In this document: positions 1,843 through 29,732 of the stretch, in pieces
How positions within the stretch are numbered: position 1 is the first letter of the stretch
Layout: each line of letters begins with the position of its first letter
NCBI GenBank assembly: GCA_046350815.1
Contig: JAXLZO010000001.1
Coordinates: 90,001-122,000 of the forward strand
Source of the DNA: Candidatus Saccharimonadota bacterium
Lineage (GTDB): Bacteria > Patescibacteriota > Gracilibacteria > BD1-5 > UBA2023
Length of the DNA stretch: 32,000 nt
Reading direction: 5' to 3'
Position numbers and translations under genes: made by a program
Notes under the pieces: generated by a model
What the model was told of the DNA's origin: nothing
The model's input: only the letters and a program-made list of their open reading frames with translations
The model's database searches: none

Positions 1843-3495
1843 TTAATAATTAGCAGTTCATGATATGGTACTTTGAACAGAAGATCAATCATCGTTGTAA
1901 CATGTCAGTGTTGTATTTACAATAGGATTGATGTGGCTTATTGCTACACTATAAGTACCGGTCGTTGCTACATTATTCTGATAACCTGAGAGATTACAAT
2001 ACTTGGTATAACTTGACTGCCACTGTATCTCTGCACTTTTATTACTGTTCGCAAGGCCAAGATTGTTTATTTGCAAAAGGTTGATTTTGGGTTCTGGTGG
2101 AGGTAAAGTAAGTTCCGCTGTAGACATAGTACCTCAGAGTCCATAGCAAGTTATCATATATGTTCTACTACCTGTGGTAGGCATCTCAAAATACTTTTTA
2201 TCGGAATATACCCCACTTATTCCTTGCTTAACTAAATCAATCTCCTGTGTGTCATTACTCACAAAATAATAAGAATAAGAAGTATAAGGGTCGCTCACTA
2301 AGCTCTTAAAATTCTTCAATTGACATTTTTGTGCATTCGTGACAGACCAAGAAAGTGTAGCGGGAATCATCTGAATGTGATCTCTACTAACGAAGTGTCT
2401 ATAATCGGTCCTATCTGCACTCAAGAGAATAGTTGGTCTCTGTGGGTCAAGAACTTGTACAGTGATAGATTTTGATGTTGATCACTCTCAATTGATACAT
2501 GTAAGCGTATAGGTTTGAGAGCTTGTGAGATTTGTGAGTCTTTCAAATTCATAATTTCCAGTAGCCTTTGACCCCGACCAATCATTACTTGCCGTACAAG
2601 ACGTAGCATTCGTTGTCGACCATATCAGGACAGTCGATCAATTGTATGCTACAGTATTGCCGCTCGCACTGAAAGAAACAATCGGTAGATTCTTTGTTGC
2701 GACAACCACGGATGTTGAATCGACTTGACTTTTTGTATTCTTATTGATACAACGAATCACAAAGGGTCCAATATTACCGGATGCGGATCAAACACTTATG
2801 GCAACACCACTTGGTACCAAATATCATCCGGATGTGTTCGTCGCATCTAATCCAGGCGATCATTGAATAAAGGAACAAGACTCGAGGTTCTCACCGATAG
2901 ACCAATACAAACTGAAGGAAGATTGCTTATCAATAATTGGTGAGCTTGGTTGTAAAAGAATTTCATCTGGATTCGGCTGTGTCGAGGACGAAGTTCCGTT
3001 CTGTGTCGAGGACGAAGTTCCGTTCTGTGTCGAGGACGAAGTTCCGTTCTGTGTCGAGGACGAAGTTCCGTTCTGTGTCGAGGACGAAGTTCCGTTCTGT
3101 GTTGTGGACGGAGTTCCGTTCTGTGTCGAGGACGAAGTTCCGTTCTGTGTTGTGGACGGAGTTCCGTTCGGTTGTGTGATTTGTGTTATTTGCTGAAATA
3201 TTTGTTGCGTGGCTGCATTTACGATACATCGAGGTGTGCCATCTCCTTCAAAACCTATAATAACACCGTTGGGACAACTTTGTCAGGTGGTTGCGTCTCC
3301 AAAAGCATTTCGAAAATAATTCATCATTGTGCCACCTTCAGCTTCTCCTGCTGGAGCCGAATTTGGCCAGGTAATCGGTGTATTTGCCCATACAATGGAG
3401 CCGGTAAATACGACGCCAAGAGCCACACTACATGTACCAAATGCCACAAGTCATTTGGTCCATTGCGATTTTCGTCACTTTCAGATGAATTTCAT
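1843..3495 (-). CDS. secreted or surface protein: N-terminal signal anchor, Ser/Thr-rich octapeptide repeat linker, four Ig-like modules
   Basis: ATG at 3495 gives MKFIGKGRKSQWTKGLVAFGTCSVALGVVFTGSIVWA. This is followed by QNGT(S/P)S(S/T)T x8 and then four roughly 85-110-aa modules, each ending in a ...TY.LTC(I/Y)N-like strand (for example WSTTNATSCTASNDWSGSKATG...TYTLTCINGEGS). It is one open frame in code 25 with TAA at 1843-1845. Standard-code fragments 2134..2424 and 1885..2127 share its frame. Confidence 0.7.
2979..3170. repeat. 8 x 24-bp head-to-tail tandem repeat inside the surface-protein CDS
   Basis: Unit is gtgtcgaggacgaagttccgttct. Copies 1-5 and 7 are identical. Copies 6 and 8 are the variant gtgttgtggacggagttccgttc(t/g). 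It encodes QNGTSSST / QNGTPSTT on the minus strand. Confidence 0.95.
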
Positions 3496-5353: not shown

Positions 5354-5375
5354 AAAATCCCCACATGGGGATTTT
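5354..5375. terminator. intrinsic terminator overlapping the stop of the giant ORF
   Basis: aaaatcccc (5354-5362), loop acat, ggggatttt (5367-5375). The TAA of the giant gene is at 5375-5377. Confidence 0.65.
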
Positions 5376-8300
5376 TACTCATAAATTCCATTAAAACGGT
5401 AACATGTTCAAGAACCATTAGGACAGGTATCCGAATAAATAATTCAAGGAAGTCACCAACACGTCGTTTGTCCATTATTTTTGAGTGCACATGTCTGGTA
5501 TCCACCGACTATTGCAATCTCAGTCACATCTGAAAGTCCGATTGGAACAGCTGTTTGACCATGATCATTCGAACCCCAGCACTCCACCGTCCCATCATTC
5601 TTAACTACACATCCATGTTGATAACCAATATTGAACTTAGACACATTAGTAATAGCTGGAATACTGGAATCAACAGTAGGAGATCCACTCACGTTATACT
5701 GCCAACATACCAATCGAGAATTAGGTTGTTGAATAGCACAAACATCATTTGTTGTTCACCAATGAGTACCAACCAAATTGGTCAAAGAAGATGTTCATGG
5801 AACAACAGATGCGTATGAATTATAGTTTTCACAAATCGCTCAGCCACCTGATTTTAATCAGCAAAGATGATGTAGATTTGTTATCTGAACAATATCATAA
5901 AAGGTACTAGATAGGTCAGTTCCATTGCCATAACTCGATCATCACCAACAAAGAACGGTATGATCCGATCGAATAACACATGCTGATGCAGGATAACTTT
6001 CAGAAACAGCAACTTGCAAAATACCTGATAATCAAGATGGCATATTTGCAGCTATATCTCACCAACATTGAACATCACCATCGGTGCTCAAGGCACACCC
6101 ACCATATTGTCAATTTTGAATCTGATGAAAGGTACCAGAAAGCGCTGGTGTTGTATCAGCCCATATATTGATGCCACAATTAATATGATTAGAGAGATAT
6201 GTTTCCATGTGATGAGAATTACAGAAACGTGGAACATTTTCAGCAAAATTAAACTGATCTGGGGTGAGTAGCATGGTATCCAGAGGACTTATAGGAGTAG
6301 GAACATTAACCGGATGACCATTACCATCATCGTCCAGAACTCCATCATCATTCATATCATAGAGTGTTTTATCATCTAAATAACCACACGTCAGACTTTG
6401 GTCAGAATTAATTCTACAAACTTCTGGATATACAGGACTAAACCATGGACTCCATTGTTTTGTACTACTCATGTTTTGGTCGTTAAACACGACATTTGGT
6501 AGATTCATCTGAAACTCTCAAGGCACATCTTGGAGGGCACCTGTCAATGGATGAAAACAAGTTATTGTCTCATCATTTTTTAGTACACACGTACTATCAA
6601 TATCTGTCTCATGATGGTCAAAATTTGGAGCACTATCGATGTCAAGGATATTATTTATAAGTGTATTCGGTATGGATCAATTGTTATTAACAAAAGACAG
6701 AGCGTTGATATGTGATATATCGGTTGTATTTGATGAGTTATTCGAGTAAAATCCCCAAGAAATAACGTTACCATCAGATTTTCTTGCATAAGTTCTTCAA
6801 GCCGTATTAGTAATCTGTGTTACTCAAGAAAGACCCGAAGGAACATGCGTCTGACTATATCAACTACTTCACCAACATTGTACAGTACCATTATTTTTAA
6901 GAGCACACACATGCTCTGCTCATACTGATACCTGCTTTACATTCGTCACATTTGACGGAACATTTGTTTGGCCATATTGGTTATTACCCCAACAAACGAC
7001 ACTGCCATCGTTGCGAACAACACACAACGTTGATATCTTTGGAACCATTGTTGTTCCTTGATCTACACTATTAAACCCAGATATTTGTCGCACCGAGTCA
7101 ATCGGAAAGTTTGGCTTTGATGCTGACCAAGAGAATCACCAACAAACCAGCTGACCGTCAGATTTTACCGCACATGTTTCCCCATTGAGTACAAGAATTT
7201 GTATTACACCTGAGAGTCAACCCGGTACATTATTTTGCCCAAGAGCATTGTCTCATCACCAACATGCAACCGTACTATCAGAGCGAATAGCACACTTATG
7301 ATCACTTGCAACACCAATTCTCTTCTGATCATATGAAGCTACGTTCGATCCAGTTACTCATTGTGGAATCTCGAGCAGATTTTGAAATGAAACCTGGGAT
7401 CGGTCATTTCGTCCCCAACATACGATAGTACTATCAGATTTGAGAGCACAAGTATGAGCTCAACCGGCAGACACTTCAGCAATATCACTCAGACCTGATG
7501 GAGTGTTATTTTGCCCATAGCTATTCGATCACCAACAACTCATGGTGCTATCAGATTTGAGGGCACAAGTATGTCCATATCAAGAAGAAATACTTACTAC
7601 ATCGGATAGTCATGATGGTATATTTGTTTGACCGTTGCCGTTATACCCCCAACAGCGAACAAATCCTGTTTGGATCAAGCTACAAGTAAAATTCGAACCA
7701 GCTGATACCTCCATAACTCCTGAAAGGTCTCATGGAACCAACGATTGATTCGATCTGTTGTCACCCCAACATTCCACTGTTTTATCAGATTTGAGGGCAC
7801 AGGAATGATAGGATCAGAGTGAAATACTAACAACTCAGGTGAGTCCAGGAGGAACATCTATTTTTCCATATTCATTATCTCACCAGCATTCGACGGTTCC
7901 ATCTGATTTGAGGGCACAAGCATGATTATCTCATACGGAAACAGCAGTTGTAGAGCTCAATCATAATGGAACCTCGAGGAGACTACAATCAACAGTACTA
8001 TCGGATCGTAGGTTACAGGTATTCATACTACCAGCAGCAACTTGAACAACGTTGTTCTGTATAGTATCATTATTTGCAGAACATAGTGCTGATCATGATC
8101 GTAGAACACAGGTATGGTCAGCTCACAGACTTATATTTGCACCTTCATGAACAAAACTCGTAATCGTAATCGGTCGAAGATCCTCTGGAATATCCGTTTG
8201 TCCGTTATCATTGTTTCACCAACAAACGACCGAATTATCAGACTTGAGGACACAAACATGATACGATCCAACGGTGATATCAATAACGTTAGATAATCAA

Positions 8301-11300
8301 CTTGGTATATTTCATTGACCATTGCTATTATCTCACCAACATTCCACGGTTCCATCAGATTTAAGTGCACACGCATCAGTATTACTATTTGCCACCTTCA
8401 CGGCATTCGTTATTGGTGATGGAGGTGTTACGGAGTTACACATAACACTTGTATCATATTGCACAGAGCATATTTCTATACCCAACATGGTAGATCAAAT
8501 TGTATCAACCTCATTACGAAATCAAAGAGAATTTCCCCCAATACATTGCATTTTTCCATTTGTTTGGAGAACACACGTAGTATAGTTGCCTGCAACTACT
8601 TCAATAATATCATGATTCAAACCATCTGGAATACTACTTTCAGAATAATTATTACTTCACCAACACTCTACCGTATTATCAGATTTAAGTGCACAGGTAT
8701 GACCATCTCATGCGGAGATTTGGACTACATTCGTAAGTCAAATGGGTACATCGTTTTCACCAGAATAATTAAATCACCAGCACTCTATTGTTCCATCTGA
8801 TTTGAGGGCACAGGTGTGAGTTTGACCACTCGTTATCTGAATAACGTCATTGAGTCCTGATGGTGGTGTTGCAAGACCTAAATAATTATTTCACCAACAT
8901 TCTACTGTCTCATCAGTCTTAATAGCACAACTAAATGCATGTCCAGCAGAGATTCTCTGATCTTCATAACGAGTGCTGGCGAGATTAAGTGGTGTGAATC
9001 CAGAACCAAATGGAACTGGGGAGTCACTCTCTCATTCCCAATTTGATCACCAACAGATAACCTGATTACTCGCATCTCTCGCACAGACATGAGTAGGACT
9101 CGTAGCAATATCAATGGCAGAAAGTGAAGATGGAATCATATTTTCACCATGTATGAAGGTGCTTTGAGTAAAACATTCAACACTACCATCAGCCTTCATA
9201 GTACAAAGATTACCTCCTCCAGCACTGATTTTCACGACATTATCCACTCAGATATCACCAGATATTGTTCACCAGCAGAAGACTCGACCAGTCTCACGGA
9301 GAGCACACGTATAAGCAGATCATGCAGCAAGCTGTGCAACACGAGTCAAAGTCGGAACATCCGTTTGTCCCTCACTATCAGATCACCAACATGTGAGAGT
9401 TCTATCAGATCTCAAAGCACATGAATGATAGTCCCCACTTACAACTTGTACCACATCAGTGAGTCATGAAGGTGGAGTGGTTTGCCCATTATCATTGAGA
9501 CCCCAACATTCGACGGTTCCATCTGATTTGAGAGCACAGACATGGCTTGCTCCTGCTGAAATCTGAGTTACATTTGAGAGTCATGAAGGTGTGGTGGTTT
9601 GTCCATCGTCATTAAGTCACCAACATTCGACGGTTCCATCTGATTTGAGAGCACAGGTATGAGATGCTCAAGCACTGATTTGAGTGACATTCGTGAGTCC
9701 AGATGGTACGGTAGTTTGCCCATCAGCATTGAGACCCCAACATTCCACAGTAGCATCAGATTTGAGAGCACAGGTAAACTGATAACCAGTCGTCATACCT
9801 TGATCCTCAAATACTGGTTCTGTTATTGGACTACTTGCTATTCCGCCAAACCCGGGTGGAACTTCGGTTTGACCATCCATTCATTGTCACCAACATGCAA
9901 TGGTATTATCCGATTTGAGGGCACATGTATGAGATCCTCACATAGAGGTGCTAATTTCAGTAACACCAGAAAGTGTCATTGGCACGTCGGCTTGACCATC
10001 ACCATTATCCCCATCACACTCGACACTACCATCAGTATGAACCAAGCAAGAGTAATATTCTCCGGCACTGATATGAGCAACATTCGAAGCTCCTGAGAGA
10101 TCCCCATTCGATCACCAGCAAACTACCGAATCATCAGTCTTAATAGCACAAATATGTTCATCACCAGCTGATATTTGCTTCACAGTACCAATGTCACTTG
10201 GGAAATTATCTTGTCACGATCACATATTTCACCAACACTGCATTCGTCATGTATCTTTGAGTGCGCAAGCAAAATTCCAACCAGTTGCAATTTGAACAAT
10301 ATGATTTAGTTCGCTTGGCACATTTGTTTGTCCATCACTATTATCTCACCAACACGTAACGGTTCCATCAGATTTGAGGGCACATACATTATTATAGCCA
10401 ACACTCATCTGAACAACACCACTTAATCATACCGGAACATCCGTCTGTCATCACGATGGGTCTCACCAACATGATACTATTCAGTCAGATGAAAGAGTAC
10501 ATGCAAAACGATATCATGCACTGATCGCTATAACATTATCGAGACCGATAGGTATATCAAGCTGTCATGCGTCATTTGCACCCCAGCACTCTACCCCACC
10601 AGTTGAGGTAATTGCACATGTAAAGTTATTACCTGTTGTGAGGCGATGATCGTCAAAAACAACTGAATTAAGGATAACAGGAAAGTTTTGAAGCTCTTCA
10701 GGAACCGGTAAGTATCCAAAAAGATTCCAGCATACAACACTACTATCGGATTTGATAACACAAGTGTGTTCCCTGCCAGCGGATATTTGAACTACGTTTG
10801 AAAGATCAGGTGGAACATAATTTGAGCTCACACTCCAACCATCACTATTCCAATATTCTCACCAACACTCGACGCTACCGTCGGATTTGAGTGCACAATT
10901 ATATGAAGAATCAGATGAAATTTGTGTAACATCCGCAAGTCATGGAGGTACATATGCAGCCGGGTTTTCTCATTCCATATTTATACCCCAACACTCGACG
11001 GTCGCGTCGGATTTGAGGGCGCAAGTATGGTATTTACCAGCTGATACCTGAGTAATATTAGAGAGTCATAAAGGAATATCGATTTGACCATTATCATTCG
11101 AACCCCAACACTCGACGGTCGCGTCGGATTTGAGGGCGCAAGTATGGTATTCTCAGGCGGAGATTTGAACTACATTGGTCAATCATGACGGCGGAGTAGA
11201 TTGTCAGTACCAATCAGCTCCAACACACTCTACGGTTCCATCAGATTTGAGGGCACAGGTATGTTCTCATCAGGCGGAAATTTGTGTAACATCAGAGAAG

Positions 11301-12337
11301 CTTCAAACAGCAGTTCGTCAATCTTCATTATCATATCCCCAGCAAGCTACTACTCCATCCGATTGAAGTGCACAGCTATGATAATACCCAACTGATATTT
11401 GCACCACATCAACGAGACCTGATGGCACATCTGTTTGACCATCATAATTATCTCACCAGCATACCACACTCTGATCTGCTTTCAGAACACAAGAATGACC
11501 TTGTCCAACTCATACCATCATTCCCGATGTATCAATCGTATTTCCCGATCAAGTTGACCCGGTGTTGTTATTGACAGGTGGAGTCAGTCATTGTTGCACT
11601 GGAGCATTGGTTCCTTTATCAAGTACGATGCCAAGTCGATCTCCCCAAACATACGGGTATCTCTTCGTGTAGTCCGCATCAGCCGCATTTGCTTCATCGG
11701 ATATATTCTTCCAGAGAAGAGGAGTTTGATTTTCATGTTCCGGATTCTCAAGATACGCCAAAAATTGACTCTTGTCACGATTCTGTCAGAGACGATAGGT
11801 AAAGAGGGTTTGATCCTGAGGATCTACCGTATCACTATAGTTGAGATTACCAGCAATAGAAGAGTCAGCATATCACTGCCAACCGAGATTTTGATTACTG
11901 AGAGTACCTGAAAAGGTTCATCCGGCAAGCAAAGAATCAACTCAACCATCTCGTGTGAGAGCTAAAAGTCTTGATCCAGTCAGAGTACTCAGCTGTGTGC
12001 TGCCATCTACAAACACAGCATATTGTGACGTGGCACCCGATATAGTCAGATCAATCGTACCACTTCCACCACCGATAGAGATAGGAATAGCCTGATAGGG
12101 CATAGGAAGAACATGAAGGGAAGCAGCTTGAAGTCGAGTCGCATCATGCAACTGTCGTATATTAGCAATACGCTGACTATCTCGAGCTGTGGCCGTGGTA
12201 TTTCCGAGGAGCAAAAATCACACAACTGTAAGAATTGCAAGTATTGCAATAATCACAAGAAGTTCGACGAGAGTAAAACCCGCAACTGTATGGTGCGAGT
12301 GATTTCTCTCCCGAAAATATAGAAACCGTAGTGTCAT
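5375..12337 (-). CDS. giant (2,320 aa) modular type IV pilin-like protein: prepilin N-terminus fused to about 38 RCC1-like beta-propeller blades
   Basis: ATG at 12337 gives [20 protein letters not shown]|[32 protein letters not shown] (G-1, F+1, E+5). I checked every codon of this frame by hand from 12337 to 5375. There is no TAA or TAG, about 90 TGA, and TAA at 5375-5377. Standard-code fragments 11942..12214, 10565..10831, 9668..9880, 9047..9247, 6110..6508 and 5453..5713 all share the frame. The repeated unit is ..H(T)[25 protein letters not shown]. Confidence 0.85.
5450..11480 (-). repeat. array of about 38 RCC1/ATS1-like blade repeats (protein-level and partly DNA-level)
   Basis: Recurrent plus-strand string tca/acc cca aca .. 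(reverse complement TGT TGG TGA/GGT = C-W-G). The period is about 117-160 bp. Includes a 50-bp exact duplicate at 10985-11034 and 11102-11151. Confidence 0.85.
12203..12337 (-). other. class III (prepilin-type) signal peptide and N-terminal hydrophobic helix of the giant ORF
   Basis: A 20-aa basic leader ends in Gly, followed by [25 protein letters not shown]. This is the prepilin peptidase cleavage/methylation motif G|FTL(I/V)E. Confidence 0.8.
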
Positions 12338-14439: not shown

Positions 14440-14469
14440 AAAAATATATCCCTTTAGGGATATATTTTT
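14440..14469. terminator. intrinsic terminator overlapping the stop of the 14468..15322 gene
   Basis: aaaaatatatccc (14440-14452), loop ttta, gggatatattttt (14457-14469). Confidence 0.75.
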
Positions 14470-15322
14470 ATGCAGTGAGTGTTTGTGGTTTTTGAGAAGA
14501 AGATTCATTATCATCTCGATCGATTCAAAGTGCACTTTTCGCCTGGATCGAGACACGTTGTTCATCGAGAGGTACCGGATAAAAACGCATACTTGCAAAC
14601 CTCGGGTGCTTTGAGGCCTCGAAGGTCATTCCACGAGGCTTACCTGGTTCAACCTGAAAATATGGATCATAGATCATCATCACGCCCGTCTTATCAATGT
14701 ATGCGAGACATGCATGGCCGAGAGGCTTTGTGCTACCAGCATCTTTTGGGCGATCAGTAAAAGCATGAAAAATAACTCATTTATGCTCTCCTTGATAAGT
14801 GATAGCTTGCTTCATATTCATTTTTGCTGAAGATGAATATTTAGTTTTTTCAACCATATAAGCACTCTCAGCACGTGGCAATTGTACGCCGAACATTTCC
14901 TCAGCGAAAGTACGTGCAGATTTTGCACAGTAGGTCATCTTATTTTGAATAATAGGACCAGCACCAACGAGAGCAATTCATTTTGTACCGGATCTTACTT
15001 TAGCAAGATATTCTTCGAGACCTTTGATATCATTTTTCTCCCGAAATTTTGCGATCTCATCATCATATCCACCTGCAAGAGAAAAATCCTCATCTTCATC
15101 AATATTACCATCTGGACTCACCGTTTCTTCAGGAAGAGTTTTTCATGTAATTTGTGCAAAAAGAGATTTCATTTTATCATACTGTGAAAAGAGACTCTTC
15201 GCAAGATCCATAGCAGTGATATCCTGAGCACCATCTTTGAGCTTGATGTTCTCAAGTACCTTAACTGCAAGGGGATTCTCTGATGTAAATTTCCCAACGG
15301 TTGTTGAATTTGTTTCGTTCAT
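14468..15322 (-). CDS. hypothetical protein, possible papain-like (CHAP/NlpC-type) Cys/His hydrolase
   Basis: ATG at 15322, four in-frame TGA, TAA at 14468-14470, no N-terminal signal peptide. Candidate catalytic pattern: ..MTYCAKSARTFAEEMFG.. then about 70 aa later ..PLGHACLAYIDKTGVMMIYDP... The start is 6 nt downstream of the SLT gene stop. The functional call is weak. Confidence 0.55.
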
Positions 15323-15327
15323 ATGCT

Positions 15328-16707
15328 TTAACTAACAGGTAAATCGACACCAAAATACTTTCTCGTAGCTATGAGATAACCATCCCAAGTCTGCGACGGC
15401 ATAAGGCGTGCGACGGCAGGATTAGCACGCATATAAGAAGTGAGATGTTTTTCAGATGCCCAAGCACCAACATGATAATAAACAACTACATCTCACCAAT
15501 TCCTACAATCTCGAAGATCACAAAGATAACGTAGAAGCCAAGTCATTGCCAGAATCTGATGTTCCGGATTGGACCTCTGCCAATTATGATTGCCTGATGT
15601 TGTCAGAATATGTGTCCATGTTTGGTCGGTGATCTGACCAAGTCAATATGCAGATCATTTTGGTGGATGGGCTACTGGATTTCATCCACTCTCATTCGAG
15701 ATAATCTGTGCTATGACACTGGCTGGAACATGATATTGAGCTGAAGCATGGTTTATATATTCTCCAAAACGCGACATAATACCTTCTGCTCATTTCACCT
15801 GTTTTTGGTACTTCTTCTCCATATCTCGTGCCATCTTTTCATCTGTTTCATAATCACGAGACGCAGATTGATATCGCGCGTCATCACCTCGCTTATGAGC
15901 AAGAAGAGCAATATCTTTGCTATTGGATCGCATAAGCACCTCATACTCCAACTCTCGTACTTTATCCTCTCGTTTTTGTCATTGCAGAACAAGGGATTGT
16001 GCCAAATTTTTATTCGGTTCTCATATTTTCAAGATCTTTACTACGCTTCCGTTATAAATTGGTAAATATATCTGTGTGTGGTTTTTATCTCATTTATCAA
16101 AGTAATAGCCTGGGCGCGGGGTAGATCGTAGATTTCCTATTTTTCCATCCACTTCTACTTGACTCACACGTGTTGGAAGTAGATCACCAAGACCAAGAAG
16201 TTCATTTGCATGTTCGTTTACATTTTCATGAGAACCAAAATTTACAATCATCTTCTGACCAATTGCTTCTGCACTAAAACCACGATCTTCAACTGCTTGG
16301 CCACTCTGAGAGAGGAGAAAATATCGAGCATCCTCAGGGAAGTTACGAAGGTGAGAGAGAAGATCACTCGTGCGAACCTCAGAAAAGTTCTTCGGAGCAC
16401 CCAAGAGAAAACTATTCTTCTCTTGAATATGTTTGAAAGCTTCTTGGAGATACTGCTCTTTTGTTGATTCTGAAATTGATTCCTGTGCAGATTGAGCGAG
16501 TTGATGAGCCTTTTTTTGCGTTGTTGAAGCAATTATTTTTTTCTCGCTTCCATTTTGTAGTGCTGCAATTTGCGTATCAGTTTTCGTCTTTTCATTAGAA
16601 TCTGCTGTATTACGAGAGAAGGTATCTATTTTCATAATCCAAGAAGACGTGCGTTCTACAGCCTTATGATAGATTTGAGACAGATCCGATAGTTTTTCTG
16701 CGGGCAT
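15328..16707 (-). CDS. lytic transglycosylase (SLT/GH23 domain) with a roughly 300-aa N-terminal domain of unknown function
   Basis: Fragment 16090..16707 continues through TGA 16090-16092 in the same frame to TAA at 15328-15330. The C-terminal domain reads HVPASVIAQIISNESGGNPVAHPPKGSAYGLGQITDQTW ... VVVYYHVGAW (ES / GLxQ / AYNAG-like SLT motifs). I see no signal peptide. Confidence 0.8.
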
Positions 16708-17981: not shown

Positions 17982-18839
17982 CTAATGAGCAAGGGGTTGT
18001 ATACATGCGAGAATTTTTGGACGCATATCATCCCTCTTGAGAGCATAATGAATCGATGCAGCAATATATTCAGATTTATCACCCACATCAAAACGTTTGC
18101 CTTCTATTCTGCATGCAGCAATGGAGACATTATTCATGAGAGCAACGTTGAGTGCTTCAGCAATAGTAATTCGACCATCTCGTCCACTCGCCATACTCTC
18201 AAGAATATCAAAAACTTGCTTAGTAACAATGAATTTTCCTATCATCGCCTGAGTACTTTCAGTCTCATGATTCTGAGGTTTCTCAAAAATTTTGACAATA
18301 TTGTCCGTGTTCATTTCGACCACTCCATAACTCCCCTGACGATCGAGAGTAATATCCCCAATACCAGCCGTAATATTTCATCCAGAAGCTTCAAAACCTT
18401 TCAAAAGCTGAAGGACTGAAGTATTATTATTATCAATAAGTTCATCACCAAAGAGCACAACACACGGCTCATCCCCTATCCACGATTTTGTCTTCAAGAG
18501 AGCATCTCCATCACCACGAGGCTCGCGCTGTCGAACATAGGCAATATTTGCAAGTCGAGACACTTCATCTACTTGAGAGAGGAGATGATATTTTCCCTTC
18601 TCCACAAGATTCTTCTGAAGATCGAATGACGCATCAAAATGCTCTTCAATAGCCCGTCCACCTCGACCAGTCACAATCATAATATCCTCAATTCCCGCAG
18701 CAACACAGTCCTCAACAAGATATTGAATAATAGGTTTGTCAATAAGTGTGAGCATTTCTTTTGGGAGCGCCTTCGTCGCAGGGAGAAAACCAGTACCATA
18801 TCATGCCGCGAGAATTACCGCCTTCTTAATTGGTTTCAT
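17982..18839 (-). CDS. galU: UTP--glucose-1-phosphate uridylyltransferase
   Basis: MKPIKKAVILAA[TGA 18801-18803]YGTGFLPATKALPKEMLTLIDKPIIQYLVED..AGIEDIMIVTGRGGRAIEEHFD... Fragments 18378..18755 and 17982..18323 share the frame. TAG stop at 17982-17984. Confidence 0.9.
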
Positions 18840-19683
18840 AATGAGAAAGAAATGGATTTAAAAATGAATATGTTTGATGAAACGATCGAACCTCAACACT
18901 CATCACATTTGGAAGAACACGAGGAATACTTTCATCACCTCATAGAGTGATTTCATCACCAAAGAACACTACTTTCTTTCCCTGATATTGTGCGAGCATG
19001 AGAATTTTTTCAAGATTATGACCTTTGAGAGCACCAATTGATTTGATATCAATGCTTGTTGCTCCCGAAATCATCCATTCGTACTCACGAGCAACCTCAT
19101 CATTTTGTGCCCGCAAGAGACGAACGATCTCAGAGCGTACTATTTTATCAGGATCAGCTGCTGCTCTTTCTTCACGAGAGATTTTACTCTGCTCTCATGT
19201 ATGGATATCCGTACGAAATCGAGGAACAACAACAACCGTCAAATTACTGATACGATCCTCAATACTTGCTCATGTATGAAGGTGAGGTATGATTCACGAA
19301 TGTTTTATTGCCTCGAAATCAGAGCAAATCTTCGCACGAAAGTCTCTTGGCATTTCATAAATTGACTCGTATTCACAAAATTCTTCCCCACTATATTTTG
19401 CTGTCTGTCAACCATTCGCACCAGCAATCAGCCAATTTTCCCAATTGGTTTCCTTTGGAAGATATTTAAGAATGTGGGATTCTACCGTTTGAAAATCTCG
19501 AGCTGTGAGAATAATAATTTTCTTTTCATGACTGAGTTTCGAGAGAATATTCGCATGCTCTCCAAAAATATCCTGATTTGGTTCAGTAAGAGTACCATCA
19601 ATATCAAACACAAATACATCAGATCATGCAATATTATGAAAAATATCATCCGATTCTTGAGAGGCGTCATAAATATGACCCAT
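18826..19683 (-). CDS. HAD-IIB family protein (phosphomannomutase-like sugar-phosphate mutase/phosphatase)
   Basis: ATG at 19683. Motif I is FVFDIDGTLT, motif II is IIILTARD, then SIDIKSIGALKGHNLEKIL and FFGDEITLGGDESI (compare eukaryotic-type PMM FFGD....GGND.E). Six in-frame TGA. TAA at 18826-18828 overlaps the galU start by 14 nt. Confidence 0.7.
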
Positions 19684-19697
19684 GAAATGAACAAAAA

Positions 19698-21618
<1,921 letters not shown>

Positions 21619-21620
<2 letters not shown>

Positions 21621-22379
21621 GGAGAGAGATGGAAAATGAGGAGCGGATTATACTTCAGAGAACAAAAATTGCAATAAATGGGAGAGAGGGAATTTGTATT
21701 TTCTTTTAAAATATGCTATATTCTTCACAGAACAATCTAGATGTTATGAATTCAGTCAACTACGGGCAAAATTTTGTAGAGTATCTCACATACTTGAAAA
21801 ACCATATCTCCAAGAAAATATTCATCTTCACCGAGTAACGTACACCACCTACATTGTATTTATCATCATTCTAGTATTTATCATCATTCTAGTATTTATC
21901 ATGATGATAGTATTACAGGGATTCTTTTTTATTATTCTTGTGGGTCTTTTTTATTGAATACAAAAGTCAAAACAAATAGAAAAGCGTGGTATAATCAGTG
22001 ATTTTTTCGCAGCATTGCATGCATATATTCATATAAAACCAGAACGATTCCAAGAAGCATATATCTGACTTCAATGATATCACCAGGTACTCTATCCACT
22101 CATATTCATACAACAATTTCTCAATCCGCAACTTTTGATAAAACCATCTGCATACATAGACTGCACATTATCAAAGAATCATAACAGTATAATTCAACCA
22201 CAAGCAATACCACAAAAAACACAAGATTATTGAGGGCTCTACTGAAATTTTTGAACGCAAAAAAATATGTCCGAAAAGAACTTCACAACATATGAAGAAA
22301 ACAAACATCTCTCTATTCAAGAACAGGTGGAAAAATTTTTTCAAGAACAGAAAACGGGAGCAAAGAGTAAAAAACAATA
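21619..22379 (+). CDS. hypothetical membrane protein (code-25 ORF only; start uncertain)
   Basis: Reading frame 1 has no TAA or TAG for about 253 codons of very AT-rich sequence, with six in-frame TGA, and ends at TAA 22377-22379. The hydrophobic core is IVFIIILVFIIILVFIMMIVLQGFFFIILVGLF. The ATG at 21619 abuts the gyrB start on the other strand, and a TTG at 21694 is an alternative. No family motif recognised. Confidence 0.4.
21856..21909. repeat. 3 x 18-bp tandem repeat
   Basis: gtatttatcatcattcta x2 (21856-21873, 21874-21891), then gtatttatcatgatgata (21892-21909). If the surrounding ORF is real it encodes VFIIIL/VFIMMI. Confidence 0.9.
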
Positions 22380-22797: not shown

Positions 22798-22839
22798 AGA
22801 GATAATAAAAACCGCCAATCGGCGGTTTTTATTATCTCT
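22798..22839. terminator. strong intrinsic terminator (19-bp perfect stem)
   Basis: agagataataaaaaccgcc (22798-22816), loop aatc, ggcggtttttattatctct (22821-22839). Confidence 0.85.
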
Positions 22840-22953
22840 TTTTCATTCTTTATTAAGTGATGAGTTGATTTGTAGAATATTTGTCAAGCTGCTTTATTGC
22901 AGAAGGGGGGGTAATGTGCTATCATTTCTGTGTTATTTTATTTTATATTTTAT

Positions 22954-25900
22954 ATGGCATCACCAGACAAATATAGCCCCTCCGTAGAACAAAAAGATTG
23001 CCCACCAGAGCTCAAAGTGAAACTCAAGTGAAAAAAGAATGAATGGCAGGACAGAGCAAAGTCTTTTAATACAAAATCTTTTGAAGAACATAAATCAGAA
23101 ATATCAGATGTCAAAAAGGCAGCTGATACTTTTATGGCTCAGTCAGTACTTGAAAACATCACCCTCAATGCTGATGACAAGGCATTACTCAAATACATGC
23201 GAACTCTCAGCGTGGACAAACCCATAGACATATCCATTATGCAAACAATGCTTCATGATGTCTGTGACAAAACCATTGCAGTGGATGGTCGAATGGGCGA
23301 ACAAACTATAACTGCCATGAAATTGGCAATGGAAAAATTTAAAAGTAAGATCCCTGGTTACCAGGAGTGATTAGTTGTAGGAGCCAAGATTGATGCTGCA
23401 ATAGCACCTGTTATTGATATTCCCTCTGTGAAGATACCAGCAAAACCAGCGCAAGTATCAGGCGATAGTTTGTCTGCGACAGAAAATGATTTTTCCATAT
23501 CAATACAAGAAAAAGTAAATAGTTGCAAAACATTACTAAAAGCAAACTATCCAGGATTGTGAGTCCAAATCAATGAAAAATGAGATCTTTTCATAAGACA
23601 AGATGTGATAGGAAGTTCCGATACGAAACTTCAAAAAATTGCAACTATTGATCTCTCAAAGACAGAAGATATTGCCTGGGATAATATACGAGTTGCTCTT
23701 GAAGAATATATAGCAAAACAGAAAGTCAGTGCACCAGCTGTTATATCAACACAAACGGAGGCAATTTCTACAGACAAACAGACCGTAACGAATGAGTCAA
23801 ATCAGATCGATGTTAAGGCTGAACAAACCAAAAAAATTCAGCTATCTCCAGAGCAAGATTCTGATGATAATCTCAAAACAATAGAAGCAGACTGGAACAA
23901 AGTAATGAATCAAGCAGAAGAATATGCAAGGAAACAATGATTGATTTTAACAATGGTGAAAACAGGTGCTGTTGTCAAATCTATGGGAGCATCAAAATTT
24001 AATCCGATTGAAATTTATGATATTTACGTAAAAAAAGAGGGGCAAACCAAAGCAGAAAAAATAGGAACATCCCACCCTGTACATTTAGAGCGAAAAGTTG
24101 ATATTCAGGGAAAAGTAAAAGATATACAAGTTTTGGTTGATAAGTATCTAAAGCATGATGCTGTCAAACCACAAGAAGTAAGCCAGGAAGCCGTGGATAA
24201 AGCTTGGTATGAAGGTTTTGACGAAGCATCAAACTATGCCAAAGATAAATGATACATCCTTACAAACCAAGCGAGCGAATTGACAGCAAAAGGTTGAAAT
24301 GCGAGCCGTCCTAATATTGATAAAGGGAAACTTCAAACAATTGCTCTCGTAAATAAAAATAAAAAGGAAAGACGAGAACTTTGAACAATTTCAGTAGAAA
24401 AGATTCACCTTGTGTCGATAAAAACCCCTCAGGAAATAAGGGATGAAATACAAAAAAGGATAGATGAATCACTTGCAAGAACAATGACAGAATCACAAGA
24501 AAATAAGACACGGACAGAAAATATCACAAAAATCGATACCCTCCTTCAAAAAATGTGATATTCCTTAGATTATGTTGACGGTAAAGCAGGAAGAATGTAT
24601 AAGAATCAAAATAATGAAAGACTTCAAGTATTTTGATGATTCTCTTGAGTTCCAAAAGATCATACTCTCACAGATTCAGAAATAAGATACAATTTATTAC
24701 AAAACAATAAGCAAAAAGATTTGCAACAACAAATTGATAACGCGATGAACGGTAAAATAAACTCTGAAGCAAATGAACAGCATTCTGAGAAAATATTCAT
24801 ATCAAAAAAAGCTCTTTCTGAATTTAAAACATTAGGAATTACTCTCACAAAACAAGACGATGGTATCCATGGAGATTTTGATCAAAATAAACATTTTATG
24901 GGTCTAAATACATCATTTGATAAGAGTGGAAAATTCATCAAAACCGAAGAATGGCCAGTGAGTAAAAAAGTATGAGAGGAATTTTTTATAGATAACAAGA
25001 CAAAATCTGTAACCTTTGAAAATGGGGTATTCACATTTATAGATAAAGATGGTTCAAAAATGACATCAGTGCTTACCGAAGTAAAAAACCAGCCGATGGA
25101 TCAAGAAATGATCAATAATTTCAAAAATGATGCCCCAAATTCTGTACAGGTTCTCTCAGCGACAGATTTAGAGATCAAGCTCAAAACAATAGCTCCGAGT
25201 GTTAAGACAAGATCATTTAATATAAAGAGCGCTGTAACAACGTGATTTGATGAGGTTCTTTGAGAAATTACTTTTAATGCAACTAAAGAAGATTCATTTA
25301 CAAAGATGCTATGGAAAGACGAGCGAATATCAGGAAGTATTATTGCGCAACTTGCATCTCGAGGATTTGTTCTTGATAATTGGATACAACCAGTTGCTGA
25401 TATAGAATCTCGTTCATGAGACAATGTTATGGTGATACCACATCCAGATGGAAAAGGTTTTGCAACGGTTTGTAAAGGTGGCGGAGTCCATGTTTACAAC
25501 AAGGATAACATAAACCCAAGTACGGTATTTGCACGTAAGCCAGTCATCTATCTCTATCCGATCAAGAAGACGAAAATCTCAGTATCAGTTGAACTCTCAG
25601 GTGCTGATATGATCACAGAATATCCAAGAACTACGAATGGTATATGGAAAGTGGAAGCATCACCGAAAGGAAACCTCGTTGATATATATGACAAGAAGAA
25701 ATACTCATACCTCTTCTGGGAAGCTGCAAAACATACAAGTTTTACGCTCAATCCGGAAAATACGGATTGTATTGCAAATGTCGATGTACAAACTTATCTT
25801 GAAAAGTCTCTCAAAACCCTTGGTCTCAATGCCCGAGAAATGAATGATTTTATGGTATATTGGCTCCCAATACTTGAACAAAATCCATACAGTCTTATCG

Positions 25901-26106
25901 AGTGGAAAACGACTGAATATACTGATATGGCAAAGCTGCATATTTCGCCAAAACCCGAAACACTTATTCGAATATTCATGGTCTTCAAATGATCAGAACA
26001 AATAGTAGCTACGAAGAACGTAGAGCTGCAGAAAACGAGACGAAAAGGATACTCCGTGGTAGAATGGGGCGGATGTAATCTCGATGAGAAGAACAATATC
26101 AAATAA
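22954..26106 (+). CDS. 1,050-aa hypothetical protein with an N-terminal peptidoglycan-binding-like module and a conserved-looking C-terminal domain
   Basis: Fragments 23134.., 23605.., 23941.., 24721.., 25060.. and 25429..25992 all lie in frame 1. I read every codon from 22954 to 26106 and found only TGA interruptions, with TAA at 26104-26106. ...LLKYMRTLSVDKPIDI..IAVDGRMGEQTITAMKLAMEKFKSKIPG resembles PG_binding_1 (xDGxxGxxTxxAvxxFQ). The C-terminus reads KPVIYLYP...YSYLFWE...LGLNAREMNDFMVYWLP. No signal peptide or TM segment seen. Confidence 0.7.
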
Positions 26107-26116
26107 TTATTTCCCT

Positions 26117-26284
26117 ATGAAAACCTATCAAAAAATGATCGAAGAGAAGAAACAAGAGCTCACCAATGAGCTCGAACTTTCTGATCAACTTGAGAACCTC
26201 AAGCATCTCTCGATAACGCTGGAACAATCACTCGAACACGACCAAGAAGTCCTCGAGGCGCATAAGAATATCACTAACATCTAG
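26117..26284 (+). CDS. small (55 aa) acidic coiled-coil protein
   Basis: ATG at 26117, MKTYQKMIEEKKQELTNELELSDQLENLKHLSITLEQSLEHDQEVLEAHKNITNI, TAG at 26282-26284. It sits between the 1,050-aa gene (10-nt gap) and the caspase-like gene (5-nt gap). Confidence 0.45.
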   Translation: MKTYQKMIEEKKQELTNELELSDQLENLKHLSITLEQSLEHDQEVLEAHKNITNI

Positions 26285-26289
26285 AATAT

Positions 26290-27594
26290 ATGTCAGAAGT
26301 TCCATCATATCAAGCAACTCGTGGGTTCGATCCGGAAATAGGTCCTGGCTACGACCCAAATGCGAAAGTGGAAGAAAAAATAGCTAAACCCAAAGATCCT
26401 CTCATAAAAACGGAAAAACTTGATAAAATCAAGTGATTAACGAGTACGGATTTACGTACAAATCTTCTGAATACTGACACATCCAAATTGAATCTCGAGA
26501 CGACAACTCGCTATCTTATTGCACTCACGCAAGAAATTAACATCGCAAAACTACAAAATCAAGATACAATGCAACAATTTCTTGGGAAATTTCAAGCAAT
26601 TCAAGAATCTTATCACAATCTCATCGGTTCATGAACCATTAGCGAATGATCTCAAAAACTTAGAGAACAAATAGAACTATGTCTGGAGTCTATTCAAAAA
26701 GGTCTAGAATCAAAAGATAAAGCACCATGATATATCTATGAACCACTTGAACAAGAACTTACAGAAATGGAAATAGACGACACAATAAAAAATGTCGATC
26801 AGCTCCTCAAAAATAAGCCATCTATGATATTCGTATGAGTAAATAAATACAACCACAATAGGAATATGAATCAAATGATGGCAAGATACTTAACAGCTAA
26901 TAAGCCGATTCCAAATTGGGAGTTGCGTGGTGCTGTGGATGACGCAAAAATTGTCGCTCAAAAAATTGAGTGATATCCATCATCAAACAAAGTAGAACTT
27001 CATGATGAGATGGCAACAAAAGAGGCAATTCTTAATGCCATAAAAACTTCACCATCAGACAAAGATATCTTCCTCTATATGTCCTGACATGGTGTGGATG
27101 GACACTTTGTACCTTATACAAAAGGTGTTATAAGTAATATGGATAAATCCGTTTTACAAATCATGATCAGTCCAGTGGAGCTATTTGAGGCAATCGGAAA
27201 AAGAAAGGCAGTTGTTATTGTTGATCATTGTTTTAGTGGTGATCTTGTAATGTCAGCACCAGACAATATCACCATTATCTGAGCAAGTGACTCTATGACA
27301 ACAGCACTAGATACTATCAAGAATGATAGTAGTATAAAATCAGAAAAAGGATTAGTAATAAGGAATGAAATAGTGACTGGAAAAAGAGAAAAAATACAGA
27401 TTGTAAAAGGAGAGAAAGTGATGAAAAGTGAGGATATCTTTTGATGAAAAGCAACCTTTGGTCTTACAGGTAATAAAAACATTCCACTTGATATCCGTTG
27501 ATTTGTAGACAGTGCAAGAGCAGTAAGTCATCTACGTGATCACAATCAACAACCTACAATCAATGCAGGAATAACAAGTAGCACAAATCTATAA
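26290..27594 (+). CDS. caspase-like cysteine protease (peptidase C14 / caspase-HetF fold) with an N-terminal helical domain
   Basis: ATG at 26290, frame 1, eleven in-frame TGA, TAA at 27592-27594. Hallmarks: MIFVGVNKYN, RGAVDDAKIVAQKI, catalytic His in IFLYMS[TGA 27085-27087]HG (YxSGHG), and catalytic Cys (27229-27231) in AVVIVDHCFSGD (DxCxSG). Confidence 0.85.
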
Positions 27595-27616: not shown

Positions 27617-27647
27617 AAAAATAGAGTGTCATTGGCACTCTATTTTT
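27617..27647. terminator. bidirectional terminator between the convergent caspase-like and kinase/HExxH genes
   Basis: aaaaatagagtg (27617-27628), loop tcattgg, cactctattttt (27636-27647). Confidence 0.75.
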
Positions 27648-29628
27648 CTATATCATTTCTATCTTGACTCTCATCAATAACATCCGCTGGCTCCGTCTTG
27701 ATACGATCCATCCATACTTGCTCTTCACCAAGAATATCACTTGGTTCAGTGTCAATACGATTCCTCCAAGCTCTCCGCTCAATCAGAGATGCGAACATTT
27801 TCCAATCAGAAACTGGAAGAAAAGAAAGAATCTCAATAACATTATCTCTTCCTTCTATTGTATTGCCATATACTCGCATAATATATGTAAGTATATCAAA
27901 CATGATCTCATCAAACTGAGGATGGGTATCTACCCTATAGAGGTCATCTATCAGAAAGATTCTTGTTATCTCTCGTATATCATCCCCATTCGAGAGATAA
28001 GCGATGATCTCCTCTTTGAGTTTCCAAAGAAGTCGATCTTCTTCCCTATCATCGGAGAATAATGCCTTGTTGATGGTGGCGTGTCTCGCCTCATGTATGA
28101 GCGCTCTCTCGTTTGGAGTTGTGATGATGACACTATATTTTTTTCAAGAATCAAGATATTTTCTCGTTGCGAATGCGCCCATTCTACCTCTTTCTTCTGG
28201 TATGAGAGATTGATTAAACGCATCTCGATCAGAAAAAACTACCCCAACAGCATTCCCTATGAGACATAACCGTGCATTCTTTGATGTAACCTCAGCAAGG
28301 TCTCAAAAACCATCGATTCAACCAAGAATTTTCTTTGGATCACCTCAGGAATATAAAAGTGCTTCGAGAGAATTCTCAAAACCATCTCGGTATATACCCA
28401 GAGATTCAAAAGCAATTTTCAGAATAGTTATTGTGAGTAATCTTTGTTGTTCTTGGGTGGCTTGACTAAAGAATAACGTCATATGATCAACAATCGGTAA
28501 CAAAGGCTGACGATCAAAAGATGATCGGATAAATCGAACCATAGCACCACCCAGTTCAAGTTGCCGAAGTATAACTTCTGAAATAGGAAGATGGAGAATT
28601 TTTGCCTTTGATTTTAGATCCTCATCCAATCGAATATTTTCAAATTCTAACATTCGACTGATACAAAATTCACTATAATCCCCCGATACTCCTCCAGAAA
28701 GACGTGGTGCTGAACCATGAATAACAGATAATATATTATTCTCGGGGAAATCAGCAAAATTTAATCATCAAACTTCCACTTTGACAGAAATATCAGAATC
28801 ATCATATTCCTCATTCTGAGGAGTTCTGATTGATATTTCTGTTGGTGTTCTCGTAGGTGTATCAATAGGTGTCGTATCCTTTATTGATAAATGAAGGTTC
28901 TGATGATCAACTATTGCCTGCGAAAGCCATAATATATCATCCAAATCTTTCTGTTTACATTGCTCAAAATATGGACTATTCTTATCTATACCAACTGGAT
29001 CAAATATAGAAAATTCTATCGTGCTCGTTCAACAGTTATTATCGATACGCATAAGGATATTTCACAAAATATCACCATGAGCAATACCTGCTTGATGATA
29101 TTTATCAATCGTATCAGAGAGCTGTTCGAGAAAGAGTGGAATGGTTATTTCAGTGAATTCTTCCGAATCATTACGATTGAGAATCTGCAATAGATTTGTA
29201 ATGTGCCAACCCTCAACCTTCTTTGTCACCAGAAATCATGCGTCTGCATGAAAAGTTATTGGACTAACAGTGTGATACGGATCAACACTATACATACTAC
29301 AAAGAACCCTATATTCCGCCTCAAAATCATCAAAAACCTGACCAAATAATTTTGGCACGGTTCTTTTCTTTTGATATTTCACGTAATAGTCATCAGGAGG
29401 ATACTTAACCGTGATTTTTCCTTCACCAACATTAATCATTCAATCACAAATACTCTTAATAGGTGGAATATACCCATGAGAACTATTTTCATTCACAGCA
29501 GATATATCCTGAAAAGACGAAAGAATATCCCAAACACGGGAGGCAGTATTTACTGGCATATCTGTGAGAATTTCATGAGGGATTACGGATCCTTTTTCAC
29601 TCCCGTACGATACTTGTTGATTTTTCAT
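27640..29628 (-). CDS. fusion protein: N-terminal protein-kinase-like domain plus C-terminal HExxH (zincin-like) domain
   Basis: I read each codon from 29652 to 27640 and found only TGA interruptions, with TAG at 27640-27642. The kinase-like catalytic loop is IAHGDIL[TGA]NIL (H 29077-29079, D 29071-29073, N 29059-29061). Also FSIFDPVG (DFG-like), ITVKY and FEAEYRVL upstream, a TPxxTP linker, then VIITTPNERALIHEARHA (HEARH = 28081-28095). ATG at 29628, with an alternative TTG at 29652. Confidence 0.75.
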
Positions 29629-29732
29629 TGTTACGTATTCTAATAATTTCAATCATCATAGCATAACTCTTTATTTTTTACAAAAAATAGCAAGTTCTTT
29701 GTCATTTAAAAAATACTTGTCAAGTAACTTTA

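Follow-up and report, generated by a model that had tools for sequence, protein, structure and literature searches.

A 32,000-nt stretch of contig JAXLZO010000001.1 (positions 90,001–122,000, forward strand; assembly GCA_046350815.1, deposited as Candidatus Saccharimonadota bacterium and placed by GTDB in the Gracilibacteria lineage BD1-5) carries at 22954–27594 three closely packed genes, which encode a long mosaic protein (gene 1), a small helical protein (gene 2) and a predicted caspase/legumain-like protease (gene 3). The whole stretch is referred to below as the window, and positions are counted from its first nucleotide. With a probability of roughly 35%, we read these genes as a module that serves the cell envelope or the interaction with a host, in which the protease is a processing enzyme and the gene 2 product its small partner. 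In such a module, the gene 1 product would be released without a Sec signal, by a non-classical route or by lysis, and would bind or act on envelope material of the producer or of a host cell. The protease would process the gene 1 product, or envelope or host proteins, and the gene 2 product would partner the conserved catalytic half of the protease as an inhibitor or chaperone that keeps it quiet in the producer.

This reading was favoured because relatives of the gene 1 C-terminal domain are of an exported type, gene 1 contains peptidoglycan (PG)-binding-like motifs, genes for surface and cell-wall proteins lie in the window and the lifestyle of these bacteria is host-dependent. Host dependence or predation characterises the Gracilibacteria and Absconditabacteria, which have many surface and cell-wall-active proteins (PMC8080830, PMC11452946). 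It was also favoured because a closed Gracilibacteria genome is predicted to export many signal-less proteins, with 104 proteins without a signal peptide predicted as exported (bioRxiv 10.1101/595074).

Organisation of the three-gene unit

Gene 1 (22954–26106, + strand; 1,050 amino acids (aa), 17 in-frame TGA codons), gene 2 (26117–26284, +; 55 aa) and gene 3 (26290–27594, +; 434 aa, 11 in-frame TGA codons) are separated by gaps of 10 and 5 nt. These coordinates, proposed in a preliminary description of the locus, were confirmed under genetic code 25 (TGA = Gly). The genetic code of this organism is 25 and not 4, because in-frame TGA codons occupy invariant glycines (lower case) of GyrB (YKVSgGLHGVG and KLgNPE), PGI (IGIGgSSLG) and UGPase (AAgYGTGF). 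Open reading frames (ORFs) of at least 100 aa in the window summed to 30,415 aa when TGA was read as sense, compared with 7,554 aa under table 11, which yielded fragments only. Translated with code 25, gene 1 was 100% identical to NCBI MFO0763351.1 (hypothetical protein U0518_00570), the record of which derives from a Candidatus Gracilibacteria metagenome-assembled genome with a 1.28-Mb contig; both the reading of TGA as Gly and this record place the sequence among code-25 organisms.

The strong terminators that had been described as bracketing the unit were also recovered. The upstream hairpin (22798–22839, +; 19-pair stem with 7 GC pairs, −28.8 kcal/mol, with a T-run) ends the gene of an RRM RNA-binding protein (ORF end 22792) and forms the left boundary of the three-gene unit. 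The downstream hairpin (27617–27647, −15.7 kcal/mol) has an A-run on one side and a T-run on the other. It separates gene 3 from the convergent gene g22, is a probable bidirectional terminator and is conserved behind the protease of the related contig L006. No + strand terminator was found inside the unit, and by their arrangement genes 1–3 look like one transcription unit. A promoter-like block, TTGCAG-N17-TGCTATCAT (22897–22925, +), is conserved 5′ of gene 1 in all relatives and may act as its promoter; a consensus promoter scan called no promoter at this position. The poly-G tract within the block (22905–22911) is G7 here and G7, G8 or G9 across related strains. A change in its length shifts the spacer between the putative −35 and −10 elements from 17 to 18 nt, and tract length could give phase-variable expression of the unit.

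Hydropathy profiles found neither a signal peptide nor a transmembrane segment in the products of genes 1, 2 and 3 (maximum 19-residue Kyte–Doolittle values of 1.41, < 0.4 and 0.98, respectively), in agreement with the preliminary description. Export signals are obvious in other products of the same window, namely a lipoprotein, the Lnb_N protein and a pilin-like protein.

Gene 3 as a divergent clan-CD protease

As judged from its motifs and profile matches, gene 3 is predicted to encode a clan-CD cysteine protease with an intact His267/Cys314 dyad. The catalytic region (26815–27594, +), of caspase/legumain-like type, contains the His motif YMSgHG (aa 263–268, 27076–27093), in which the Gly preceding the catalytic His is encoded by TGA, and the Cys motif DHCFSG (aa 312–317, 27223–27240). 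Four independent profiles covered this same His/Cys stretch. Pfam Peptidase_C14 (PF00656) matched aa 211–332 with 21.4 bits (E 2.2e-4), a borderline score that equals the gathering cut-off of 21.4, and Peptidase_C13 (PF01650, legumain) gave 17.5 bits and did not reach its cut-off of 22.8. The PADLOC ‘caspase’ model matched at E 1e-4, and NCBIfam caspase_w_EACC1 at E 0.002. In phmmer alignments, His267 and Cys314 were paired with the catalytic His and Cys of legumain (PDB legumain entries, E 0.3–0.6), and both residues are kept in intact gene 3 homologues. The ‘unambiguous C14 His/Cys dyad’ of the preliminary description therefore stands as a dyad and falls as an unambiguous family assignment, given a C14 score exactly at the cut-off and a C13 score of 17.5 bits. 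A His-then-Cys dyad in SGHG and DxCxSG contexts is typical of metacaspases, and the segment IIGASDSMTTA that follows in gene 3 and the later GKATFGL resemble metacaspase signatures.

The N-terminal region (26290–26814, +; approximately 175 aa) is predicted to be helical, is the most variable part of the protease and is private to one Gracilibacteria lineage. An AlphaFold2 (AF2) model of the protease, based on three sequences with Trp at the TGA sites, reached a mean predicted local distance difference test score (pLDDT) of only 46. In this low-confidence model, helices occupied residues 38–173, and the order of strands and helices was consistent with a caspase-like α/β sandwich; Foldseek with the same model ranked caspase-2 only 40th. 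Searched as a profile against PDB sequences, the protease alignment gave no significant match, and no more distant homologues were found in protein-database and metagenome searches. Within a known clan, the protease is a new and divergent member.

The C-terminal domain of gene 1 and its family

The preliminary description could not place the C-terminal domain of gene 1 (KPVIYLYP...YLFWE...YWLP...VVEWGG; 25537–26103, +; aa 862–1050, the last ~190 residues). On sequence comparison, this domain clearly belongs to a very large family, here termed KPVIYLYP/VVEWGG; no Pfam or NCBIfam model and no PDB fold accounts for it. A search with a TGA-free 187-aa fragment against representative clusters (50% identity) retrieved 5,778 clusters at E ≤ 1e-3 and 4,245 at E ≤ 1e-10, with E values of 6e-80 to 1e-30 against hundreds of representatives. 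In an alignment of 61 sequences, 22 columns are invariant, and residues 862–1040 carry every one of them; K, P, Y, W, E and R are among the invariant residues (K862, P863, Y866, Y868, W898, E962, W970, R1006, R1030, E1037 and W1038). No Pfam model for the domain was found in gene 1 or in 60 homologues, and no NCBIfam model in gene 1. An AF2 model of the domain from the 61 sequences reached a pLDDT of 91.7. Foldseek found no match for it in the PDB (best E 0.1, template modelling score < 0.25), and its sole match in BFVD was one uncharacterised giant-virus homologue.

The domain is always terminal, with KPVIYLYP located 151–266 residues from the C-terminus in 241 relatives. Signal, lipobox or transmembrane N-termini were present in 160 of the 217 full-length relatives (74%). 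Most members are short exported proteins or combine the domain with SH3, dockerin or hydrolase modules, and in many bacteria it stands alone as a lipoprotein. Its N-terminal fusion partners comprise SH3_3, dockerin, GH8/9/11, CarboxypepD_reg, LRR_5, Big_2, RHS (repeats, in one relative), ankyrin and ubiquitin. The family occurs in many bacteria (Flavobacterium, clostridial-type dockerin proteins, recoded lineages), in giant viruses and in eukaryote-like ubiquitin fusions. Gene 1 differs from most members in that the domain sits on a long, signal-less mosaic protein beside a protease. Its closest domain relatives (50%–70% identity) are signal-less proteins of other recoded organisms that also have the preceding ~200 residues in common. 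No gene 2- or gene 3-like neighbours were found beside domain proteins in other code-25 organisms (on L017 and L020, the domain is present and the protease absent), and the genomic contexts of the homologues (a Firmicute sigF neighbourhood, code-25 contigs and prophage-like elements) were uninformative.

In two relatives, P0226 and P0232, ubiquitin is joined directly to the domain, and the ubiquitin C-terminus reads ...LVLRKPVIYVYP instead of LRGG. Their sequences suggest eukaryotic or giant-virus members of the family in an intracellular setting.

Mosaic structure of gene 1

By its alignments, gene 1 is built as a recombining mosaic of modules. No significant match was obtained for gene 1 with Pfam, NCBIfam, PADLOC or PHROGs models. 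The PG-binding-like helix bundle of the preliminary description was reduced to sub-threshold matches (PG_binding_3, E 0.05). The first of these, a PG_binding_3-like motif (23230–23340, +; aa 93–129, IAVDGRMGEQTITAMKLAMEKF), scored 14.2 bits with PF09374 against a cut-off of 24.6 (E 0.052). The corresponding region of gene 1 on the related contig L004 (65% identical) reached 15.6 bits against the same cut-off of 24.6 (E 0.018), and on gene 1 of the window the NCBIfam holin-associated muramidase model gave E 0.045. A second, PG_binding_1-like motif (24541–24606, +; aa 530–551, LLQKMGYSLDYVDGKAGRMYKN) also lies below threshold; on the homologous L004 module, PF01471 gave 13.5 bits against a cut-off of 23 (E 0.084). 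A PDB profile search with an alignment of the gene 1 N-terminal part returned nothing significant. Together, the PG-binding-like motifs, all of them below cut-off, are suggestive.

The region directly before the domain (24913–25536, +; aa 654–861) showed BLASTP matches to P0008, P0011 and P0012, which reach back to aa 654–717. This region and the C-terminal domain are common to code-25 proteins with differing N-terminal parts. Among close relatives, gene 1 measures 806, 1,050, 1,139, 1,150 or 1,259 aa through gain and loss of modules of ~100 aa. In the 806-aa protein of L004, the C-terminal domain is replaced by unrelated sequence, and genes 2 and 3 still follow downstream; the partnership with the protease is thus independent of this domain.

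Gene 2 as a small, strongly conserved protein

Gene 2 encodes an acidic helical protein of 55 aa (12 D/E, 6 K/R) with a heptad-like Leu/Ile pattern and without a family match in Pfam, PADLOC, NCBIfam or PHROGs. It is 89%–95% identical among relatives, including ~90% identity behind both types of gene 1 C-terminus, and its 3′ end is nearly unchanged ahead of the most divergent protease, that of L006. The near invariance of gene 2, while the protease N-domain diverges to ~40% identity, would fit a putative partnership between gene 2 and the conserved catalytic half of the protease.

Distribution, variation and selection

The complete trio, followed by g22 and the Lnb_N gene, was present on L001, L004, L007, L008, L011 and L012, and partial copies on L003, L005, L009 and L010. 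A lack of co-occurrence outside this genome, which the preliminary description had named as a refuting outcome, was not observed: the trio recurs on at least seven other contigs, all of them from close relatives (77%–91% identity). A homologue search with the whole of gene 1, in which the word filter was saturated, gave four close matches, and the C-terminal domain was accordingly searched separately; homologues of gene 1 as a whole and of the protease were restricted to close relatives. A metagenome scan added two more close relatives only. Two scans of species-representative genomes detected nothing; in one of the search patterns a Gly was encoded by TGA, and the genes are probably missing from the species representative. 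Overall, the protein, metagenome and genome-collection searches revealed no co-occurrence of the trio beyond close relatives. Since the contigs bearing the trio all come from close relatives, their synteny carries little information.

Within this group, the locus has been damaged in independent events. In L002 (GCA_035905065.1, 199–2461), a deletion took the 3′ part from gene 1 and the end from gene 2 and eliminated gene 3 and g22; genes 1 and 2, both truncated, are fused there. L001 (3804–3960) and L012 (10001–10140) have in common a 1-nt deletion at protease codon ~35. In L006 (1000–1100), ~10 nt including the catalytic His codon have been lost from the protease, the N-domain of which is ~40%–45% identical to that in the window; this protease, the most divergent one found, still follows gene 2, where the contig ends, and g22 is reduced to a remnant.

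All three genes are real coding genes under purifying selection. Gene 2 had a ratio of nonsynonymous to synonymous substitution rates (dN/dS) of 0.06–0.26; the ratio of gene 3 was about 0.2, and gene 1 overall gave 0.12–0.41. Within gene 1, the ratio was 0.12 in the C-terminal domain, the most conserved part, 0.13–0.20 in the N-terminal part and 0.40 in the region before the domain, with aa 654–861 being the least constrained. The synonymous rate (dS) itself was very uneven. In gene 3, comparison with L004 (10001–11305) gave 0.5–0.75 for codons 1–200 and about 0 for codons 250–434; in gene 1, dS exceeded 1.2 in the N-terminal region and was 0.18–0.4 in the C-terminal half. This unevenness in genes 1 and 3 indicates recombination. 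The data support a unit that is maintained by selection yet dispensable in some strains, and the locus is lineage-restricted, strain-variable, accessory and quick to change.

The neighbouring gene g22 (27640–29664, −), convergent with gene 3, encodes 674 aa from a start that is uncertain (657–670 aa in relatives). It has a weak kinase-like N-domain (Pfam Kdo, E 0.059; PADLOC PD-T4-6, E 3e-4; an MkoA-type match) and a zinc-protease-like HExxH motif, HEARH. It shares its terminator with gene 3, accompanies the trio in L001, L004, L007, L011 and L012, disappeared in L002 and L006 along with the protease or next to it, and is possibly associated with the trio.

Possible functions of the unit

Several observations weigh against a cell-envelope or host-interaction module. 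The three proteins lack the signal peptides and transmembrane segments found in other proteins of the window, and no secretion apparatus was linked to the locus. Every PG-binding match stayed below its curated cut-off, and the C-terminal domain has no assigned function. Some relatives of this domain are probably intracellular, namely the ubiquitin and ankyrin fusions and the signal-less code-25 proteins. The protease and the domain are separable, as L004 lacks the domain and L017 and L020 lack the protease, and the structure model of the protease is poor (pLDDT 46). Within the proposed module, cleavage of the gene 1 or gene 2 product by the protease, and binding or inhibition of the protease by gene 2, would be guesses.

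The absence of export signals keeps alive both an intracellular conflict role and simple co-transcription. If the genes were co-transcribed and functionally independent, the protease would have a role of its own, such as the digestion of host-derived protein for an amino-acid-dependent symbiont or general turnover, and gene 1 would be an unrelated surface or structural protein. Caspase homologues do occur in very diverse prokaryotic operons, 70 of 217 without inferable function (PMC3501461), synteny limited to close relatives is little informative here, and the C-terminal domain and the protease are each found without the other. However, the gaps of 10 and 5 nt and the shared putative promoter and terminator point to co-regulation, no homologues were found outside the lineage, and both the loss or damage of the genes as a block in L002 and the repeated inactivation of the protease are ill-fitting for a housekeeping enzyme; we consider functional independence possible and rather doubtful. 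An intracellular anti-phage or abortive infection module, in which a protease activated by infection cleaves gene 1 as effector or decoy under the regulation of gene 2, would agree with the lack of export signals in all three proteins and with the presence/absence variation, pseudogenisation and recombination that are typical of defence loci. The weak PADLOC caspase match of gene 3 and the weak matches of g22 to the PD-T4-6 and MkoA kinase-like defence models point the same way. Against these stand the lack of any detected sensor NTPase, gasdermin, TPR-CHAT, CARD or nuclease, the absence of PADLOC matches for genes 1 and 2 and of any significant PHROGs match, a gene 1 C-terminal domain found mainly in exported proteins and flanks that are housekeeping genes (gyrB, pgi) rather than a defence island. 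Such a module seems unlikely to us. The known kind of conflict system to which the preliminary description had likened the trio was not recovered either, as neither gasdermin nor NTPase sensor was found and the generic PADLOC caspase match stood alone. No result backed the roles of substrate and adaptor that it had considered for the partners of the protease.

It is quite improbable that gene 1 is a polymorphic-toxin-like effector, in which the N-terminal part is conserved, a C-terminal ‘warhead’ can be exchanged and is released by the protease, and gene 2 gives immunity against it. The exchanged gene 1 C-terminus in L004, the domain relative fused to RHS repeats and the variable number of gene 1 modules would fit this scheme. 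An immunity gene, however, should co-vary with the toxin, and gene 2 is ~90% identical behind both C-terminal types. Moreover, the C-terminal domain is no known toxin and stands alone as a lipoprotein in many bacteria, and the pattern of divergence is the reverse of that expected, the C-terminal domain being the most conserved part of gene 1 and the N-terminal part the most divergent (dS > 1.2).

A bolder version of the cell-envelope or host-interaction reading is that genes 1–3 are a protease-armed effector module of candidate phyla radiation (CPR) episymbionts. Here, the mosaic protein would be exported despite its lack of a signal, the 55-aa protein would restrain the protease, and the protease would free or activate the C-terminal domain, which would act on host cell envelopes as a new enzyme or binding fold. 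We regard this version as highly speculative. The suggestion in the preliminary description that the trio is a host-directed weapon is, as an inference, possible.

Comparison with known systems

Some cysteine proteases are secreted and have a small cytoplasmic inhibitor encoded next to them, as in staphopain/staphostatin and SpeB/Spi. These pairs share with the present operon a small conserved protein encoded directly beside a cysteine protease, and an inhibitor role of gene 2 would explain its strong conservation. They differ in that the proteases are of clan CA instead of CD, the inhibitors are β-barrel or propeptide-like proteins instead of a 55-aa helix, and gene 3 has no signal peptide.

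An intracellular conflict module would have its analogues in caspase-like proteases that cut a gasdermin or Csx30 encoded next to them. Bacterial operons that pair a gasdermin with such a protease were reportedly described by Johnson et al. in Science in 2022. The strain-variable locus and the position of a caspase-like protease beside a possible substrate are shared with these operons. In contrast, Pfam, PADLOC and NCBIfam revealed no gasdermin in genes 1 and 2, g22 or g23, and genes 1 and 2 showed no pore-forming signature; gene 1 is a modular protein of 1,050 aa with an exported-type C-terminal domain, and sensor components are absent. Polymorphic toxin systems, said to have been set out by Zhang, Aravind et al. 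in 2012, also have a large modular protein with a strain-exchanged C-terminus followed by a small ORF. In the present operon, unlike in those systems, the small ORF does not co-vary, the C-terminal domain is conserved and no known trafficking or toxin domain is present.

The prokaryotic caspase homologues (metacaspases/orthocaspases, MEROPS C14) resemble gene 3 in the His-then-Cys dyad, C14 being reached at the cut-off, and likewise occur in operons with genes of unknown function (PMC3501461). Compared with them, gene 3 is very divergent (21.4 bits), is nearly as near to legumain (C13) and has a private N-domain of ~175 aa; its homologues were found in one Gracilibacteria lineage only, and its caspase-like fold is putative. 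PADLOC 2.0 identified no full defence system, with a generic ‘caspase’ match on gene 3 and weak kinase-like matches on g22. At most, the operon represents a new variation on the theme of a caspase-like protease with partner proteins, limited to one Gracilibacteria lineage. Operons of unknown function are common in CPR genomes. No mention of caspases was found in the consulted papers on Gracilibacteria and Absconditabacteria, and a literature search by accession number retrieved no paper on the locus.

Genomic context and consequences of the genetic code

The trio is flanked by the housekeeping genes gyrB and pgi and by the Lnb_N gene, in a synteny conserved in relatives. An origin from a mobile element or phage was considered and is disfavoured by these flanks. 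PHROGs gave no significant match; one hit at E 0.004 was to a family of unknown function. No BLAST-level paralogues or internal repeats were detected within the window.

Other genes in the window include that of a giant pilin-like surface protein of 2,320 aa (5375–12337, −), which matches the prepilin N-terminal methylation motif PF07963 at E 2e-6. A 459-aa protein with an SLT lytic transglycosylase domain (15328–16707, −) has no signal peptide and is another example in this genome of a cell-wall-active domain without a Sec signal; a 284-aa protein without a family match (14468–15322, −) adjoins its gene. A 550-aa protein (1843–3495, −), which combines an N-terminal hydrophobic segment with a tandem array of QNGTSSST repeats, is by its composition probably a Ser/Thr-rich surface protein, possibly glycosylated.

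The genetic code also affects gene calling and database content. Because code 25 leaves two stop codons, long spurious antisense ORFs of 494 aa (17985–19469, +) and 683 aa (19626–21677, +) lie opposite the NTP_transferase, Hydrolase_3 and gyrB genes, and a naive longest-ORF caller selects the wrong strand at both positions. In a large public protein collection (P0001–P0007), contigs of this lineage were translated with Trp at TGA (code 4), so that every one of the proteins contains Gly-to-Trp errors, including one beside the catalytic His (YMSWHG). Such code 4 translation of code-25 organisms degrades homology searches and structure prediction.

Implications

The KPVIYLYP/VVEWGG family, which neither Pfam nor NCBIfam models and whose confidently predicted fold lacks a PDB counterpart, is a new by-product of this analysis and a candidate for family definition and functional study, whatever the operon does. 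Gracilibacteria are uncultured and host-dependent, and their interaction with hosts is little understood; the operon offers a concrete candidate for the host interface. If the effector-module reading were true, a family that counts thousands of uncharacterised proteins would gain its first function.

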